DNA of 20,000 bases from IMG/VR virus record IMGVR_UViG_3300020577_013858; one strand, given 5' to 3'. Origin of the DNA: an uncultured virus (IMG/VR IMGVR_UViG_3300020577_013858) (lineage: Duplodnaviria; Heunggongvirae; Uroviricota; Caudoviricetes). The position numbers and the translations under genes were made by a program. Below are positions 2,235-16,634 of this stretch, one piece after another. Position 1 is the first letter of the stretch; the number at the start of each line of letters is the position of its first letter. A model generated the notes under the pieces. That model did no database searches, had not been told where the DNA came from, and saw only the letters and a list, made by a program, of their open reading frames with translations.

Positions 2235-2689
2235 TCGCCTTCGGTAAGCGCTTTCCCGAGGGCCTGGAGTTCCTCGCGAAGTCGGGCGTTCTCCGCCGTG
2301 AGGGCGTCGATGCGTTCGCTGCGAAGCGTCGCAAAGTCGCACAGTCTCATGCGCTCCTGCATGAGCTTGTCGAGGTCGCGCGTGAGTTCGGTGATACGTT
2401 CGGCGCGATCCGCCGAAAGGCCGCGCAGGCTCGTGTGCTCCTGCGTGAGCTTCTCGAAACGTTCTTGCTCGACCTCGCGGGTCGTCTCCGAAGTGGAGAG
2501 CTTGAGTTCGAGTTCGCGGATGCGTGCCCGAAGAATCTCGGTCGATTCTGAGGCAGGCATGGTCACGGGAAGAACCCGCTCGATATACTCCCGCTTGACA
2601 CTCGCGCGGGGCTCTCCGTCGGTCGAGGTGTGGTTCGCGAGTGCAGCGGGGTCACGGGTCGTGTTGCTGGAAATCGTTGAGGCTTTCAT
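2231..2689 (-). CDS. Coiled-coil hypothetical protein (152 aa)
   Basis: ATG 2689 overlaps the stop of the HTH gene; long heptad E/R/L-rich C-terminal half (LRARIRELELKL...LTAENARLREELQAL). Confidence 0.75.
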   Translation of the reverse strand: MKASTISSNTTRDPAALANHTSTDGEPRASVKREYIERVLPVTMPASESTEILRARIRELELKLSTSETTREVEQERFEKLTQEHTSLRGLSADRAERITELTRDLDKLMQERMRLCDFATLRSERIDALTAENARLREELQALGKALTEGE

Positions 2690-2991
2690 GGACGGCGTTC
2701 CTTTCGCGTGGCGTTCACTGCGCGCTCGACTCGCGCACGGGCGTGCGGCGTGCGAAGGCTTCGCACGCCACGATAGGGGGTTCCGTCGCCCGCGCCAAGC
2801 CACGCGAGCGAGCAGCGAAAGACGCGCGCGAGGGCGTAGACGGTGGCGAACGAAACGTGCGGGTGATCCTTCGCCCGAAGGGCGTAGAGCTGCGCGCGGG
2901 AGAGGCCCGAAAGCGCGGCGATCTCGTGCTCGGGTCGAGTGAAGCGCGCGGCGCGCGTGAGCGCCGCAAGGCGTTGGCGGAGCGTGCTCAT
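2686..2991 (-). CDS. XRE/Cro-C1-type helix-turn-helix regulator (101 aa)
   Basis: MSTLRQRL...EIAALSGLSRAQLYALR...VSFATVYALARVFRCSLAWLGAGDG is the typical XRE pattern; GAGGAG SD upstream; ATGA overlaps at both ends. Confidence 0.8.
   Translation of the reverse strand: MSTLRQRLAALTRAARFTRPEHEIAALSGLSRAQLYALRAKDHPHVSFATVYALARVFRCSLAWLGAGDGTPYRGVRSLRTPHARARVERAVNATRKERRP
2747..2769. promoter_or_regulatory. Palindrome copy 1: GGCGTGCGAAG-G-CTTCGCACGCC, inside the XRE gene
   Basis: Perfect 11-bp arms; same core as 13174-13190 and 17011-17026. Confidence 0.6.
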
Positions 2992-3164
2992 CGGCGTCTC
3001 CTCGCGATGGCGCCCTCGCGCTTGCACCTCATGCACGTGTCCCGTGCGCAGGAGGTGTTGGTGTTGAAGACGAAGCCGCACGCGCGGCATTCGATCTCCC
3101 GCGCGTGGTAGAGACCGAGGTCGTCGTCGATGTGACGACGCACGAGAAACAGGGGGTCATCCAT
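2988..3164 (-). CDS. Small Zn-ribbon protein (58 aa), absent from the ORF track
   Basis: Hand translation MDDPLFLVRRHIDDDLGLYHAREIECRACGFVFNTNTSCARDTCMRCKREGAIARRRR*; CxxCG...CxxC; stop overlaps XRE ATG; ATG lies 7 nt after a -10 box. Confidence 0.75.
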   Translation of the reverse strand: MDDPLFLVRRHIDDDLGLYHAREIECRACGFVFNTNTSCARDTCMRCKREGAIARRRR

Positions 3165-3242: not shown

Positions 3243-3971
3243 ATGACCGAGAGCAATCCTACGTCTGAGGCTTCTCCGCCCCCTTCGATCGACCACAAGG
3301 CGCTCGCGTCGATCGTCCGCACGGGGGATCTTCGCGAGCTCTCCGAAGCGGATCGGGTCGAGCTCATGTCGTCGGCGTGTCGCGCGCTCGGGCTCGACCC
3401 GTTTACGATGCCGTTTTCGTTCGTCAACATCGGGGGGCGCGTGCAGTTGTACGCGCGGCGTTCGGCCACCGATCAACTCGCGCGGATTCACGGACTCGTG
3501 CGCGAGGTCATCGACGGCCCGAAGGTGGTTCCGGTGCTCAACAGCGCCGTTGCGTTTGCGATGTGCAGGTTGACGCTTCCCTCGGGGCGCTACGAAACGG
3601 CGTCGGGCACCGTGCCGTTGTCTCACCAGAACGCAGGCGATGCGCTCATGACCGCGGAGACGAAGGCCAAGCGCCGCGGAACGCTCGCGATTCTGGGGCT
3701 CGGGATGCTCGACGAGATGGAGGTGGACGTCATCCCCGGGGCAGAAATCGCGGAGGTCATTGCGCTCAAGGAACGCATCGAGCGTGAGGTCTCGTCGGTC
3801 GAGACCGCCGCGCGCGTCTGGGTTGAGGTGTCGGCGCGCGTCGAGGCGCTCACGCCCGTGCAACAACGCCGCGTGCGCGCTGTGCTGGTCAAGGCGTCGC
3901 GGTCGAACGCGGACGCGGTACGTGCGGCGGTGTCCGCGCGGCGCGCGGAGACGAAGGGGAGTGCGGCGTGA
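3243..3971 (+). CDS. Probable phage single-strand annealing/recombination protein (RecT/Redbeta-like)
   Basis: GDLRELSEADRV..C..LGLDPFTMPF...G+VQLYA....DQL..IHG and ALMTAETKAKRR.TL.I.GLGMLDE.E motifs, recalled from a common phage protein family; first gene of the early operon. Confidence 0.6.
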   Translation: MTESNPTSEASPPPSIDHKALASIVRTGDLRELSEADRVELMSSACRALGLDPFTMPFSFVNIGGRVQLYARRSATDQLARIHGLVREVIDGPKVVPVLNSAVAFAMCRLTLPSGRYETASGTVPLSHQNAGDALMTAETKAKRRGTLAILGLGMLDEMEVDVIPGAEIAEVIALKERIEREVSSVETAARVWVEVSARVEALTPVQQRRVRAVLVKASRSNADAVRAAVSARRAETKGSAA

Positions 3972-4090
3972 GCGCTTGCTGCACTCGTGCTCTCAGGCTT
4001 TGGGTTCCGGTGATCGCACGCATCTGCGCGCGGGTTTCCGGGGAGGCGCGTTGCGCGCTCGCGCTGCGCAGGTGCGAGGGATGCTCATGA
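3968..4090 (+). CDS. Small Cys-rich ORF (40 aa), absent from the ORF track
   Basis: GTG 3968 and TGA 4090 give 4-nt overlaps with both neighbours; VSACCTRALRLWVPVIARICARVSGEARCALALRRCEGCS. Confidence 0.5.
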   Translation: MSACCTRALRLWVPVIARICARVSGEARCALALRRCEGCS

Positions 4091-4818
4091 GCCACGCCTT
4101 CACCCGCTTTGCGACCGAAGCGGTCACGCACGCGCGACCGCCCCATGCGTTCGACACGGCGCTCGCGCGGGCGATCGGAGACGGCTCTGTCCCGGTCGTG
4201 GCGTTGGTGCGTGTGCTTCTCGACGCGCCCACGACGGACCCGTGGACCGACACGCGGAACATGGCGCTCGCCCATGTCGCGGCGCATCCCGAGCTGGCCG
4301 TGTCCGTGCTCGCGATCGGCGCGCAGGTGCTCGCGGATTGGCCCGAGCCGACGTACACGTTTCAAATGCACGGTGACCCGCATTGCGCGCGCTTTCAGTG
4401 CTTCGCGTGCCTTGCGATCGGAGGCCCAAGCGCAGAAGGCGGCTTCGTCGAGCGGGTTCACGGGACGGGCATCGGTCGCACGAAGCACGAGGCCAAGCAG
4501 CGCGCGTCGGTCGATCTTCTCGCGCGCGTCGCGCGACTGGCGGTGCCCGAGGTCGAGGTCGCGCCCGCGAAGTCTTCGCCGCCCGAGGTGACCGACGCCG
4601 ACCCGATTCAGGCGCTCTACCATTGGTGCAGCCGTCGCGCGCTTCCCGTCGTGCCTGCGTTCGCGTTCGCGATCGAAGGGCCGCCCCATCGCGCGGAGGT
4701 GACGTGCCACTGTCACCTGCACGGGTTCCCGCACACGTCGGGCAAGGCCCGCACGAAGCAGGGTGCGAAGCGTGCGGCGTGCGAACTCATGCTCGCGACG
4801 ATTCGAGGTGCGACGTGA
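4087..4818 (+). CDS. Tandem double-stranded RNA-binding domain (2x dsRBD) protein, 243 aa, no RNase III domain
   Basis: Repeat 1 AVSVL...PEPTYTF..HGDPHCARF.C...GIGRTKHEAKQRASVDLL; repeat 2 DPIQALYHWC...P.FAF..EGPPHRAEVTC...GKARTKQGAKRAACELML; both carry GxxH loop and KxxAK helix motifs. Confidence 0.85.
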   Translation: MSHAFTRFATEAVTHARPPHAFDTALARAIGDGSVPVVALVRVLLDAPTTDPWTDTRNMALAHVAAHPELAVSVLAIGAQVLADWPEPTYTFQMHGDPHCARFQCFACLAIGGPSAEGGFVERVHGTGIGRTKHEAKQRASVDLLARVARLAVPEVEVAPAKSSPPEVTDADPIQALYHWCSRRALPVVPAFAFAIEGPPHRAEVTCHCHLHGFPHTSGKARTKQGAKRAACELMLATIRGAT

Positions 4819-5834
4819 AGCTCGACGTGAAGCACGCGATCCAGACCCCTCAGGGGTGGGTCATTTGCCCCGAGGTGTTGGTGCAGCGGACGGCGACGTG
4901 GGCGGTCTACACGGTAGACCTTCGCGGGGTGGATGCGGAAACGATCGAGATCCGAACGAAAGACGGTGGTTACTCTGTCCGTGCGCGTTCTCGCGAAGCG
5001 GTGACGCTGTGTGTCGGCGGAGACCCCTTCTGCGAGGTGCCCGGTGTTTCGTACGAGGTTGAGGTCTCGATTCCGAGCCTTCAGTCGTCGATGGTGTTCC
5101 CGCAGTTCGATCGCGACACGGATAGGCTGTCATTCTCCGTGCAGTGTAACGATACGACGGCGCAAACCGGATTCCCGGTGCCAGTCAACTTCACCGGCCG
5201 CCCGCGGCGTGCCGATGTCCCGGTGCAGGCGATGCCCGTGATGGCGCCTGCCCCCAAACCCAAAAAGGAGCCCTCGAAAATGCCCGAACCGAAAGAACCC
5301 TCACTCCGCGAGCGGGTCGCCGCGCATCCGGTCGTCAAGACCGTCGAGCGCGATGCGGCGGATGCTGCGTGGCGCATGGCAGGTCATCAGCTCGTCAAGC
5401 TCGCGCGCGAGCCTCTCGTCGCGGCTCTGGCGCGGTCGCTCGGACCCGGTGACGAGACGTTCCGCGCGCGTCTCGCGGCGTTCCTCGAAACCGAGCTCGG
5501 CGCGACGCTTCTCACGGCGCTCCTGTCCGTGGGGCTCTCGGCGGTCCCGGCGCTTCCCGGGCTCCCTGCACCGCTCGTGCAGCGGTTGGCCCAAGAACTG
5601 CGCGTGAAGTCGATGGCGGGCGCGGCGGATCTCATCGTCGACGTCGTGATGGGGCCGGTGCGCGAGACGCTCGCGACGTTCGCGGCGGGCGGGCAGATCA
5701 CCCTCATGCCGTTTCCCGTGAGCGAAGAGGACGCGCAGATTCCCGCGACGTCGAGCGCGACCCCCGCGGCGTTCGACGGCGGCGCGCGCCCCGAAGCGAC
5801 GGAGACCGTGAAGAGGCGTCGTCGTGCAGATTGA
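4815..5834 (+). CDS. Hsp20/alpha-crystallin-like N-terminal domain + Pro-rich linker + helical C-terminal domain
   Basis: PEVLVQRTATWAVYTVDLRGVDAETIEIRTKDGGYSVRAR resembles the Hsp20 P.VD+.ET...Y.+..DLPGV..E.I.+...DG.L.+.G.R pattern; GTG 4815 overlaps upstream stop. Confidence 0.55.
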   Translation: MKLDVKHAIQTPQGWVICPEVLVQRTATWAVYTVDLRGVDAETIEIRTKDGGYSVRARSREAVTLCVGGDPFCEVPGVSYEVEVSIPSLQSSMVFPQFDRDTDRLSFSVQCNDTTAQTGFPVPVNFTGRPRRADVPVQAMPVMAPAPKPKKEPSKMPEPKEPSLRERVAAHPVVKTVERDAADAAWRMAGHQLVKLAREPLVAALARSLGPGDETFRARLAAFLETELGATLLTALLSVGLSAVPALPGLPAPLVQRLAQELRVKSMAGAADLIVDVVMGPVRETLATFAAGGQITLMPFPVSEEDAQIPATSSATPAAFDGGARPEATETVKRRRRAD

Positions 5835-6840
5835 CCTCTTTCCGCCCGTTCCGCCCAAGCTCGGGCAAGGGGATGGCGCGCGCTTCTCACAGCCCGACCG
5901 ACATCACCGTTACGCCCTCTGGCGCACGTGGAGTCATCACGGGCCGCGCGTCGTGTTCGTGATGCTCAACCCGAGCGTGGCGAACGAGAAGGAACCCGAC
6001 CTCACGCTCACGAAGTGCTGCGAGTTCGCGCGTCGGTGGGGCTACGGTGGCGTCGTGCTGGTCAACCTCTTCACGTGGGTCGAGACGCAAAGCGAAGAGC
6101 TCGTGCGGCGCGTTCACGCGGGCGAACCCGTGAACGGTCCCGGCGCGGACGCGGCGATCGTCGAGGCCCTTGCGCTGGCAGACCGCATCGTGATCGCGAC
6201 GGGCGACGTCCCCTTCGCTCGGGAGCGACTCGCGCACGTGCTCGCGCTGTGCGCGCAACGCCCCGTGCAGTGCCTCGGGCTCACGAAGGCGGGCTTCCCG
6301 CGTCACCCTTCGCGGTTGGGCTATGCGGCGACGCTCATGCCCTTCGACGGCCTTCCCGCGGAGCCCTTCGACGCGCGCGGGCTCACGTTCTGGCGACCGT
6401 GGGCGGAGGCCATCTTTCGGCCCGTGCCGCCCGGGGCGACCGCGCCCCATCCGAAGGACGTCGACAATCGTCCGCGCCCGCCTGGTTTCATGCGCGGCAA
6501 GCGCATCGCCGTTCACACCGCGCAACGCATCCATCACGAGGGCCTGGATTGGCTCCGTCGCACGTTCGGGTATCCCTGGACCGTCGCAGACCTCGCGCAC
6601 CCGGGCGTGATCCTCGGGACGGTGCGCGTCGCGGGCACGGTCACCGAGGGCGCGCGCGCGTGGTTCTTCGGGCCGGAATGGAACGGGAAAGAGAACGTCG
6701 GTTGGCTCCTCGACGACGTGCGCCCATTCGCCACGCCCATCCCGTTCACCCCGAGCTTCGCGCGGGGCTTCTGGCGCTTGCCGCCCGACGTGCTCGCGCG
6801 CGTCGAGATGCAGTATCACCAGCACGGAGAACGCGCGTGA
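5824..6840 (+). CDS. DUF1643 domain fused to an ASCH (PUA-like) domain
   Basis: N-half RYALWRTW....VVFVMLNPSVA....D.T...C..FARRWGYGG...VNLF...CLGLTK.G.PRHP (DUF1643); C-half GLTFWRPWAEAI..KDVDNR...RIAVHT...GVILGTV...W.LDDVRPF..PI...GFW (ASCH). Confidence 0.85.
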   Translation: MQIDLFPPVPPKLGQGDGARFSQPDRHHRYALWRTWSHHGPRVVFVMLNPSVANEKEPDLTLTKCCEFARRWGYGGVVLVNLFTWVETQSEELVRRVHAGEPVNGPGADAAIVEALALADRIVIATGDVPFARERLAHVLALCAQRPVQCLGLTKAGFPRHPSRLGYAATLMPFDGLPAEPFDARGLTFWRPWAEAIFRPVPPGATAPHPKDVDNRPRPPGFMRGKRIAVHTAQRIHHEGLDWLRRTFGYPWTVADLAHPGVILGTVRVAGTVTEGARAWFFGPEWNGKENVGWLLDDVRPFATPIPFTPSFARGFWRLPPDVLARVEMQYHQHGERA

Positions 6841-7112
6841 AGCCGTCTGAGGTATGGCTGATCGGTTCGCCCTTCCCGTTGGTTAACACCTTCGGGAGCG
6901 TCGAGCGCGAGTGTGCGGTGGCGATGGTCGTGCGTGCGCTCGCGGCGACCGTCGATCGGTGGGAGCCGATCACGGGCGTGGACATCGCTGCGGTCGTGCG
7001 CGCGGACCTCGCCGAGTCGCGCGAGCCGTGGTTCTCAATCTGTGGCGCGTCGAGTTTCGGCGCGAGGTGCCTTCGCTCGACACGCCCTGACAATCGGGCA
7101 GAGGGGCGTTGA
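6837..7112 (+). CDS. Hypothetical protein (91 aa), C-terminus possibly disrupted
   Basis: GTG 6837 overlaps upstream stop; good codon bias for about 65 codons, then weaker. Confidence 0.55.
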   Translation: MKPSEVWLIGSPFPLVNTFGSVERECAVAMVVRALAATVDRWEPITGVDIAAVVRADLAESREPWFSICGASSFGARCLRSTRPDNRAEGR

Positions 7113-7137
7113 CGCGCCCTTTGTTCTTCAATAAAGG
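7109..7137 (+). promoter_or_regulatory. Candidate promoter with overlapping imperfect palindrome
   Basis: TTGACG 7109-7114, N17, TAAAGG (weak -10); CCTTTGTT-cttc-AATAAAGG at 7118-7137; AT-rich island. Confidence 0.45.
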
Positions 7138-7147
7138 TAAACACATC

Positions 7148-8194
7148 GTGCGACCTGTGCTCTTTCTCGACATCGACGGCGTGATGAACTCGCAAGCGCA
7201 CTACGACCGTCTCAAGGCCCGCGGCGAACCGACGCCGCCCGCGGGATGGCTCGACCCCGTTCTCGTCGCGCGCGTCAACGAGGTGTGTCGCGTCACCTGT
7301 GCAGAGGTCGTCATCACCTCGTCGTGGCGGACCTGCTACGACAAGGGGGGGCTGGATTTCGTCCGCGCGACGCTGCGTGAAGCGGGCTTCACGGGCGAGG
7401 TGATCGACGGCACGCCCGACCTGTGCGAGCGCGCCCCCGATGGCTCGCTCCTGCGTGTGGCGGAGACGCGCGGCGACGAGATTCGGCTCTGGTTGGGGGA
7501 GAACCCGGGGCGTGGTCGGTGGGCGGTGGTCGATGACCTCGACCTCGGGATGGACGCCGCGCGACACGTGAGGACGGACCTCGCGCACGGCATCACCGGG
7601 GAGAACGCGGAGGCCCTGGTGTGGGCACTCGGAGGCCCCGTGCCGTGGTCGGTCTGCGTGGTGCGCTACAGCTACAACTCGACCTCGACGCACCCTGAGT
7701 TCGAGGAGCGTCGCATCGTGGACGTGGGGCTCACGCCCGGGGAGGCGTTGCTCGCGGGGATCGTGCTTGTGCCGCCGCACGAACCCGACGATGGGCGTGG
7801 GGAGGGGGAGGTCGTGTTCCTGCGCGTGCTCGGAGCGGGAGGCCGTCAGGCGTCGTCGTTTTTCTTCGTCGAACGCGGGCACCTTCGCATCGTCGCGGAC
7901 GTGTTCGGTGACACGCTCGCGAAATGGGCGAGCGAAGAGCTCGCATGGTGCGAGAGCATCCGCGGGTTGGTCGAACTGGCCGCGCGGAACTCGCGCGAGG
8001 CGTTCGGACACACGAACACGTGGCACGTCGAACCCGTGCAGGGGCTTGGGTGGGTCGCGACGGTGCGGACGGAGCGGGGCGCGCAGGTGTTCCGCGCGGA
8101 GAACCCTTCGCTGCGCAGGTGCCTTGCGGCGCTCCTCCAATTCCTCGCGATGCCCTGGACGGCAAGCGCAGAGGTCGAGCGGGGTGGCGCGTGA
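7148..8194 (+). CDS. HAD-family phosphatase, Swiss-Army-Knife RNA-repair-like type (HAD_SAK_2), with long C-terminal extension
   Basis: VLFLDIDGVMN (motif I), VVITSSWR (motif II), RGDEIRLWL, WAVVDD (motif IV); about 190 extra unrecognised C-terminal residues. Confidence 0.85.
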   Translation: MRPVLFLDIDGVMNSQAHYDRLKARGEPTPPAGWLDPVLVARVNEVCRVTCAEVVITSSWRTCYDKGGLDFVRATLREAGFTGEVIDGTPDLCERAPDGSLLRVAETRGDEIRLWLGENPGRGRWAVVDDLDLGMDAARHVRTDLAHGITGENAEALVWALGGPVPWSVCVVRYSYNSTSTHPEFEERRIVDVGLTPGEALLAGIVLVPPHEPDDGRGEGEVVFLRVLGAGGRQASSFFFVERGHLRIVADVFGDTLAKWASEELAWCESIRGLVELAARNSREAFGHTNTWHVEPVQGLGWVATVRTERGAQVFRAENPSLRRCLAALLQFLAMPWTASAEVERGGA

Positions 8195-15677: not shown

Positions 15678-16634
15678 ATGACCCTCTCGAATCCTGCCCT
15701 TCACCCGTTGCCCGTGGGCGTCGCCGAGACGCTCCGAGCGAATCTTTCGTTCGCGTTCGACGCCATTAGCAACGCCGTCTCCCGCGACGTCGTGGCGCGC
15801 GTCGAGGTACACCTGTCCGCGGGCCAACTCCCCGAAGCGTTCGAGCTCCTCAAGGAATCGCCCGTGAACGATGACCTCAGTGACCGCGACGCGGCGCTCT
15901 TCGCCGCGTTCAAGGGGACGCTCCTCGCGGCGGTCCAGGCGTGCGCGAAGCGAGGCGCTCCCCGGACGTTCTACGCCGCCATCGCCCTCAAGGGGCACCA
16001 CGACTTCGGGCTCTGCCACGTGCAGGAGGAGACGCGCGGCTCGCGTCGCCATTACACGTGCTGGCCGCTTCTCCAGCCCGAGCAGCGGTTGGAGCTGGTC
16101 TGGGATGAATCGTGCTGGCGCGTCACGGAGGTTGACCCGAAGGTCGCCCGCGCCATGTGCGATCGGTTCGAGCGCGAGCACGCGGACACCACCACGCTGC
16201 AACGGGAGGTCGAAGAGCTCGCGCGTGCCACGCACGGGGCGGACGCCGAAGTGATCGTGTTCCAAGACGATCTCCGCGTCGACGTCCAGGGTGGATGGCT
16301 CGCCGTCGTCTACGTCGGGGCCAACCTCGTCGCCGAGTGCCGTGGCGACCGCAGCTCGAAGTACCGCGCCCTCGACGATCTTCGCGGGGTGCTCAAGGCG
16401 CCCGACGAGGGCACCGCGGGCGAACGGGCGTTCGTGCAGTGCGCCACCGAGCCGAGCGACGACGGCACCGAGGGGTTCGACGAGTCGCCCGGCGTGGGCG
16501 TCGAGCCGCAAGGCCCGCCCGTAATCAGTCGGATTCGTCAGAAAATCGAGCATATCACCGAGCTGGTCGCGACGGGATCGACGCCGCCCACGGGATCGAC
16601 GCCGCCCACGGGATCGACGCCGCCGAGCGTGTGA
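15678..16634 (+). CDS. Hypothetical protein (318 aa) with low-complexity tail
   Basis: GGAG SD; GC3 bias; C-terminal (TGSTPP)x3. Confidence 0.8.
   Translation: MTLSNPALHPLPVGVAETLRANLSFAFDAISNAVSRDVVARVEVHLSAGQLPEAFELLKESPVNDDLSDRDAALFAAFKGTLLAAVQACAKRGAPRTFYAAIALKGHHDFGLCHVQEETRGSRRHYTCWPLLQPEQRLELVWDESCWRVTEVDPKVARAMCDRFEREHADTTTLQREVEELARATHGADAEVIVFQDDLRVDVQGGWLAVVYVGANLVAECRGDRSSKYRALDDLRGVLKAPDEGTAGERAFVQCATEPSDDGTEGFDESPGVGVEPQGPPVISRIRQKIEHITELVATGSTPPTGSTPPTGSTPPSV
16572..16625 (+). repeat. 18-bp in-frame tandem repeat ACGGGATCGACGCCGCCC x3
   Basis: Read directly; encodes TGSTPP three times. Confidence 0.95.

Follow-up and report, generated by a model that had tools for sequence, protein, structure and literature searches.

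The gene P0001 (4087..4818, plus strand) encodes a 243-amino acid protein that comprises a helical domain and two dsRNA-binding domains (dsRBDs) without a nuclease. It lies in a window of 20,000 nucleotides, i.e., the whole analyzed stretch of DNA from an uncultured virus. Judging from sequence comparisons, P0001 is almost certainly the C-terminal recognition half of a ribonuclease with an RNB-helical-dsRBD-dsRBD architecture, from which the catalytic RNB domain has been lost. It is a real gene that was correctly described by the initial annotation and is built from known domains, and its origin is both traceable and unexpected. On balance, with slightly better than even confidence, we read P0001 as a nuclease-deleted offshoot that would act as a duplex-RNA binder in a phage early region, with shielding of RNA as a plausible use.

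Reading Frame and Domain Composition

The plus-strand frame from 4087 to 4818 translates into 243 amino acids without internal stops, with a GC3 of 0.83 and a codon log-odds score of +0.28, compared to −0.18 and −0.27 for the two remaining plus-strand frames. A Shine-Dalgarno-like GAGG (4076..4079, plus strand) is located 7 nt 5' of the ATG at 4087, a second in-frame ATG is present upstream at 4081, and the stop overlaps the start of the next ORF (GTGA). An in-frame upstream extension was rejected, as it gains only about eight residues that align weakly, and its codon score is that of non-coding sequence. Read comparison yielded one contig, possibly the source of this DNA, that spans the stretch without differences, and two identical 151-nt pieces from a second study.

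The initial annotation described two dsRBDs behind an approximately 70-residue helical N-terminus and suggested a Pfam search and a structure prediction, both of which agree with that description. The dsrm profile (PF00035) matches P0001 in two stretches with 52.6 bits (cut-off 23), and AlphaFold2 with a 29-row alignment predicts four helices and two alpha-beta-beta-beta-alpha domains at a mean pLDDT of 92.9 (a single-sequence prediction with a pLDDT of 42 was set aside). The helices (residues 2-12, 20-32, 37-46 and 54-66) make up an N-terminal domain of residues 1-68 (4087..4290; DSSP of the model). Its W53 is near-invariant, with a Trp in 67 of 68 full-length and eight of nine standalone (nuclease-free) rows. 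Then follow dsRBD1 (residues 69-148; 4291..4530) with its GDPH loop (H99), R131-T-K133 and the basic motif K133-K137, a Pro-rich flexible linker of about 23 residues (4531..4599) that forms the lowest pLDDT block (63), and dsRBD2 (residues 172-242; 4600..4812) with its GPPH loop (H201), K224 and K228, all on the plus strand. The coordinates initially assigned to the dsRBDs closely match these, and the GDPH, GPPH, TKHEAK and TKQGAK motifs reported with them are all present. P0001 retains H99, H201, K137, K224 and K228, and a [KR]-x(1,3)-[KR] motif occurs in both dsRBDs. The helix-1 Glu, rightly noted as not conserved, is missing from dsRBD1 across the whole family and is replaced by H179 in dsRBD2, where 62 of 68 full-length relatives and six of eight standalone proteins carry Glu.

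The reported lack of an RNase III signature or nuclease also held up: neither the RNase III models of Pfam, at E ≤ 0.1, nor those of NCBIfam match P0001. Comparison of the helical domain with nine RNase III domains gave an hhalign probability of 0.2%, i.e., no similarity, which rules out that this domain is an RNase III relic. A search for its fold, weak as dsRBD2 dominated the outcome, gave no fold match for the helical domain among the matches listed. The top structural matches of P0001 are the dsRBDs of E. coli RNase III and TRBP (VIA Z 12.0, rmsd 1.9, 71 aligned). Foldseek matches tandem-dsRBD proteins with an E of 1e-9, and R2D2, Loquacious, DRB4 as well as viral dsRBD proteins are among the structural matches. 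Since the His residue of either loop is retained along with both basic motifs, and in view of the modeled fold, we infer that P0001 is probably a non-catalytic binder of duplex RNA.

Origin From an RNB Ribonuclease Family

A phmmer search of 1.84 billion representatives retrieved 140 proteins, among them P0001, at E ≤ 0.001. The best relatives measure about 590-620 amino acids and align from residue ~11-25 of P0001 to its end (best E 3e-23); in Pfam, for which 70 of the 140 were scanned, they carry RNB (PF00773) together with dsrm. A 600-column HMM of 59 full-length members was used to class 143 sequences (the 140 and three cluster members) as full-length (n = 88), containing part of the RNB domain (n = 15), C-terminal only (n = 20) or other (n = 20), the latter being eukaryotic dsRBD proteins, RNase III and short pieces. 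The parent architecture of ~600 amino acids consists of the RNB domain, the helical domain, which connects RNB to dsRBD1, and two dsRBDs, without a cold-shock or S1 domain. Its Asp motif begins 4-53 residues from the N-terminus, leaving no room for cold-shock domains (CSDs). Both this motif and TSPxRR are kept in 84 of the 88 full-length parents, and the N-terminal half matches RNase R and RNase II structures with E values of 4e-31 and 6e-27, respectively, Asp motif included. RefSeq examples, named "RNB domain-containing ribonuclease", are WP_327378746.1, WP_023383605.1, WP_204165055.1 and WP_012166605.1, and automatic annotation already shows the RNB+dsrm architecture, in two Atlas clusters with 76 and 82 members.

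P0001 occupies columns 349-596 of the 600-column full-length HMM with 152 bits, which corresponds to the last ~245 residues. The standalone profile aligns to the full-length profile with an hhalign probability of 100% (E 3e-53), residues 1-151 of P0001 match RNB+dsrm clusters of the Atlas by structure (TM 0.53), and the helical region scores 74 bits against a region HMM that was built with P0001 included. This full-length homology to enzymes with RNB and two dsRBDs implies that the nuclease missing from P0001 is of the RNase II/R type and not RNase III. The initial framing of P0001 alongside TRBP, Staufen and E3L had to be abandoned, as the whole protein is homologous to the C-terminal half of these bacterial enzymes. 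An HMM search of the 20-kb window in six frames detected no RNB remnant, the highest score outside P0001 being −0.6 bits. This homology shows that P0001 stems from a parent exoribonuclease of mobile elements that shed its RNB domain, the remaining half having been kept as a phage gene of its own.

The standalone set comprises 11 of the 20 C-terminal-only sequences in eight clusters: P0001, P0061, P0069, P0071, P0074, P0081, P0087 (with P0141/P0142) and P0133 (with P0143). Nine others (P0007, P0011, P0013, P0028, P0039, P0042, P0065, P0106 and P0121) were left out as fragments or unresolved. The clusters of the fragment-like P0042 and P0054 also contain members of 620 and 601 aa, respectively, and that of P0039 one of 332 aa; P0013 sits on a 116-kb contig.

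Occurrence of Parent and Standalone Forms

The parent is covered to at least 80% in 48 of the 74 plasmid records that it matches; most of these are from Rhodococcus, Acaryochloris, Pseudomonas, Streptomyces and Gordonia. Several Rhodococcus plasmids contain two to three matching places each, and one Acaryochloris strain has several plasmids, each with a parent match. The parent is also carried by three IMG/VR contigs (536, 437 and 202 kb; CheckV 98-100%) and by a 105-kb metagenome contig that is phage-like by its translations. Loci with the parent, each on a large plasmid or a jumbo viral contig, include L001:10001-11800, L002:10001-11737, L003:9980-11788, L161:8852-10699, L176-L178 and L195-L200. 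Two RNB-driven scans listed 160 loci, of which at least five contain the helical domain (the three IMG/VR contigs above, a Streptomyces contig and a contig of a cyanobacterial MAG). The genome-contig scan is no census, the matches listed being mostly ordinary RNase R. Across nine annotated plasmid regions with the parent, no common defense neighborhood was found, and one region carries no annotation; genes near the parent encode DndC/PAPS reductase, recA/recD, Lsr2, mIHF, WhiB, HNH and gp37/gp68. In elements of Streptomyces and Pseudomonas, the parent is closely preceded by DndC/PAPS-reductase-family genes (L176:4503-6050, L177:7118-7918 and L081:6444-8072).

The initial annotation also considered that homologues could be ordinary chromosomal genes. 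This is largely not so, with the family found on plasmids and viral contigs and in none of 383 Polyangiaceae genomes (nor in 193 genomes of another search; both scored 5-14 candidates per genome), while the cyanobacterial MAG copy (L082) does have chromosome-like neighbors. Myxococcota had been chosen for the genome searches as a guess from GC content. Eight matches were obtained in 401 Myxococcota genomes, i.e., six RNase III, one small single-dsRBD protein and one divergent standalone protein. This divergent standalone protein of 263 aa, with the helical domain and dsRBDs, the first of which has decayed, is encoded at L174:9614-10405 on contig C66 (190,544 bp) of G157, and probably lost its RNB domain independently. 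The contig, from a Myxococcota bin, is phage- or mobile-element-like, with many genes for methyltransferases, helicases, ParB, MazG and integrase. A 144-aa protein of a Myxococcota genome (L173:1483-1917) has a lipoprotein-like N-terminus, one dsRBD and no nuclease, and two RNase III proteins (L166:988-1998 and P0072) end in two dsRBDs. On a 1,506-bp contig, P0070 carries dsRBDs that hardly differ from those of P0010 behind a start that we take to be GHKL-ATPase-like; it is a chimera or misassembly.

Among 50,697 phage records, P0001 has no tblastn match, and none of the 38 records that match the parent reach 80% coverage; by these same searches, cultured phages contain neither the parent nor the standalone form. 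No relatives of P0001, A2 or P0133 were found in viral contigs, and a viral match of P0141 (L179) was rejected, being a chance similarity of eight residues within a 99-aa ORF that is unrelated. Nor was the standalone form found on plasmids: the 15 plasmid records matched by P0081 align one dsRBD only, 11 of them being annotated as RNB ribonucleases and four lacking annotation at the match.

Genomic Context in the Window

The gene upstream of P0001 (3243..3971, plus strand) belongs to phage families, with Atlas clusters that are 86-94% viral, six IMG/VR loci and three phage records, in keeping with the phage-like setting described initially. One of its Atlas clusters is 20% Rad52_Rad22, and as a lead only, the gene possibly encodes a single-strand annealing protein. 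The dsRBD gene occurs at none of the six loci that share this upstream gene (0/6), which marks P0001 as accessory cargo. The 115-bp gap between both genes (3972..4086, plus strand) contains no RNB remnant according to a six-frame HMM search. It is covered by a doubtful 40-codon ORF (3968-4090, plus strand) that overlaps both neighbors and has a codon score of −0.14. The initial placement of P0001 as third gene of an early operon depends on this ORF; among well-supported genes, P0001 is the second. Both "phage" and "early" are strong inferences for this setting, the latter from gene order only.

On the other side, a 339-aa ORF (4815..5834, plus strand) overlaps the stop of P0001 and has neither a family match nor a phage record. 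A strong Shine-Dalgarno sequence precedes an ATG at 5280 inside this ORF and suggests a nested or second product. The next gene in the same-strand cluster is a fusion of DUF1643 and phrog_3193 (5824..6840, plus strand), the latter domain presumably being ASCH-like. In L003, a DUF1643 gene also follows the parent gene at a distance of about 1.5 kb. Rightward of DUF1643 follow HAD_SAK_2, a protein that weakly matches sigma region 4, and DUF5131, with a C5 methyltransferase further along. The HAD_SAK_2 protein (7109-8194), a Swiss Army Knife RNA-repair HAD with a ~190-aa C-terminal extension, is a second RNA-related gene of the cluster. ORF 15678-16634 ends in a short peptide repeat (approximately 16580-16634), in which a unit of six residues occurs in three near-copies. 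Divergently oriented is a Cro/CI-type HTH repressor-like gene (2686..3090, minus strand), after which a DnaC-like loader gene follows on the same strand (within 1218-2342); the pair is matched by phrog_2328, HTH_3 and phrog_50. A receiver-like domain protein (641-1213; Response_reg E 0.03, below the cut-off) lies downstream of a 211-aa ORF (9-644). This arrangement of leftward and rightward genes is how the early region of a temperate phage is organized. No virion genes (capsid, terminase) were recognized among the 26 window proteins scanned, the contig as a whole measuring 70,592 bp. PADLOC (2023 library), whose models describe defense and not anti-defense, matched none of ten proteins.

This context bears on the possibility that P0001 is an RNA regulator of the phage itself, which would bind stem-loops or duplexes of sense and antisense RNA around the divergent repressor or early promoter and adjust the processing, stability or translation of phage transcripts without any role in defense. 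Such a role would suit both the position of P0001 near the front of a same-strand cluster that diverges from the HTH repressor and the surroundings of the plasmid parents, which adjoin recA/recD, Lsr2/mIHF, WhiB and gp37/gp68-type genes rather than known defense genes. Nonetheless, no convincing structured-RNA element was found, nothing stood out in a promoter/terminator scan with shuffle control or in a repeat search without control, and the absence of P0001 at all six loci with the upstream gene points to an accessory gene instead of a core regulator. We therefore consider this explanation unlikely, albeit the least improbable of the alternatives.

Standalone Relatives and Phylogeny

Seven further 50%-identity clusters, known from protein sequences alone, share the nuclease-free form at about 25% identity. 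Standalone proteins other than P0001 have 10-28 residues of their own ahead of the family match, and the two multi-member clusters contain 245-261 aa proteins only. The longest contigs per cluster range from 1.2 to 64 kb, and a truncation could hide in the two shortest. The breakpoint is the same throughout, just ahead of the helical domain, which all standalone forms keep with a near-invariant Trp and Pro. The loop His of dsRBD2 is gone in four of the eight standalone proteins and several are acidic, a pattern that suggests drift of this dsRBD.

The constant breakpoint and the retention of the helical domain, while dsRBD2 drifts in half of the proteins, would also be expected of a protein decoy or adaptor in which the helical domain docks on RNB and either poisons a full-length enzyme of the family or recruits host RNase II/R in trans to duplex RNA. 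In the P0001 model, however, helix 4 continues straight into helix 1 of dsRBD1, so that the domain may merely stabilize dsRBD1, and the 20-kb window contains no RNB gene; we regard this mode of action as rather improbable.

In an 80-row tree (LG+G4, quick search), nine of the 11 standalone rows group together (SH-aLRT 91), and the divergent G157 copy is placed away from this group. P0001 falls outside the other standalone rows in the free trees, on a long branch (1.55-1.7), and it is a singleton in a word-based homolog search. Given these observations, it may represent a separate, recent RNB loss. In a reduced tree, from which seven rows were removed (four long branches and three near-copies), constraining the eight standalone rows as one clade was 31 log-likelihood units better (AU p 0.753). 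For these sequences, a single origin of the standalone form is allowed rather than shown. The word-based search with the standalone alignment returned three proteins, one of which is an RNase III, and a search for longer relatives, across 785-2240 aa, gave none. Small nuclease-free dsrm clusters also occur in Bacillota in the Atlas; bacterial nuclease-free dsRBD proteins are hence not unique to the family of P0001.

The singleton status, the long branch, the loss of the conserved helix-1 Glu and the position outside the standalone clade of the free trees would equally suit a relic of a truncated RNB-dsRBD ribonuclease gene with little or no present function. Yet the 243-aa frame is intact, with a normal codon score, its own Shine-Dalgarno sequence and a stop-start overlap; there is no RNB debris upstream, the predicted fold is confident, and seven further clusters, at about 25% identity, are truncated in the same way. 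A relic is accordingly quite improbable.

Proposed Function

Our preferred reading remains that of a nuclease-free binder kept for its RNA recognition. P0001 would bind A-form duplex or stem-loop RNA through its two dsRBDs without cutting it. An enzyme that finds duplex RNA would, minus its RNB domain, become a protein that sits on the same RNA, and P0001 may in this way occupy structured RNAs that the parent enzyme would otherwise degrade. Duplex RNA of the phage might then be shielded from dsRNA-directed nucleases or sensors, candidates being host RNase III, RNase R and the parent enzyme where a rival plasmid or phage encodes it. We put forward shielding or counter-defense as the role of P0001 tentatively, at somewhat less than an even chance; the anti-defense role is a fair hypothesis. 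At the sequence level, H179 in place of Glu and the damaged dsRBD2 loop in half of the standalone proteins would count against full-strength binding by P0001.

A more specific and rather speculative version casts the parent as a dsRNA-directed exoribonuclease weapon of plasmids and jumbo phages, in which case the nuclease-dead decoy of smaller phages would shield duplex RNA from the parent or from dsRNA sensing. If true, P0001 would be a bacterial counterpart of E3L-type antagonists, made from the targeting module of the attacker itself. It is very improbable that P0001 is instead a sponge for cyclic nucleotide signals on a dsRBD fold, as Acb4 of phage SPO1, which in the available part of its description is structurally homologous to dsRBDs of bacteria and acts by sequestering CBASS signals (PMC11722364): in what is accessible on Acb4, it is a single domain that has lost the KR motif, whereas P0001 has two domains with the KR motif in both and dsrm matches above cut-off, and Acb4 is not among its best 50 structural matches.

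Comparison With Known Systems

Literature searches, which covered titles and the starts of abstracts and few subscription papers, gave no description of the RNB + dsRBD architecture or of its nuclease-free form among the matches listed. The main text of a jumbo-phage review (PMC7824862) contains no whole-word mention of RNase R, RNase II, RNB or dsRBD, and the accessible main text of bioRxiv 10.1101/2025.06.06.658234 does not mention dsRBD. In the available part of PMC3710099, HEPN-RNase III-dsRBD fusions are the only bacterial case noted.

The closest known proteins are the RefSeq RNB-helical-dsRBD-dsRBD enzymes, which reside on mobile elements and share the helical domain and both dsRBDs with P0001; P0001 lacks their RNB part of ~350 amino acids and has His for the helix-1 Glu of dsRBD2. 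Canonical RNase II/R carry CSD1, CSD2 and S1 domains, as given in part of PMC5714204. In contrast, the parent begins at RNB and ends in dsRBDs, and P0001 lacks the RNB domain altogether. Tracing P0001 has thereby exposed a parent family of RNase II/R in which dsRBDs replace the OB folds, and the parent enzyme, together with the half that lacks the nuclease, makes a natural experimental pair. With bacterial RNase III, the likeness is confined to the dsRBD, on which dsRBD2 of P0001 superposes (Z 12.0, rmsd 1.9, 71 residues), while P0001 has no RNase III domain or signature and its helical domain is unrelated by profile comparison.

A survey of phage dsRBDs (bioRxiv 10.64898/2026.07.21.739742) states, in the portion available, that the [KR]-x(1,3)-[KR] motif is needed for dsRNA binding and is lost in Acb4, and that the surveyed phage dsRBDs, some with the KR motif, are single-domain except for one RNase III. 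Compared to the Acb4 clade and phage RNase III, P0001 is tandem and RNB-derived, a form that this portion of the survey does not mention. There, bacterial dsRNA sensing and its blocking by dsRNA-binding proteins of phages are presented as an open possibility, a question that P0001, as a tandem and motif-intact candidate, makes directly testable. Finally, TRBP, R2D2, Loquacious, DRB4, vaccinia E3L and MERS NS4a have the same fold and motifs, are likewise nuclease-free and likely work in a similar way to P0001. The eukaryotic tandem-dsRBD proteins lack the helical domain, as the eukaryotic matches among the 143 sequences failed its HMM. Since the origin of P0001 is bacterial and mobile, its likeness to these eukaryotic and viral dsRBD proteins is best understood as convergent architecture.
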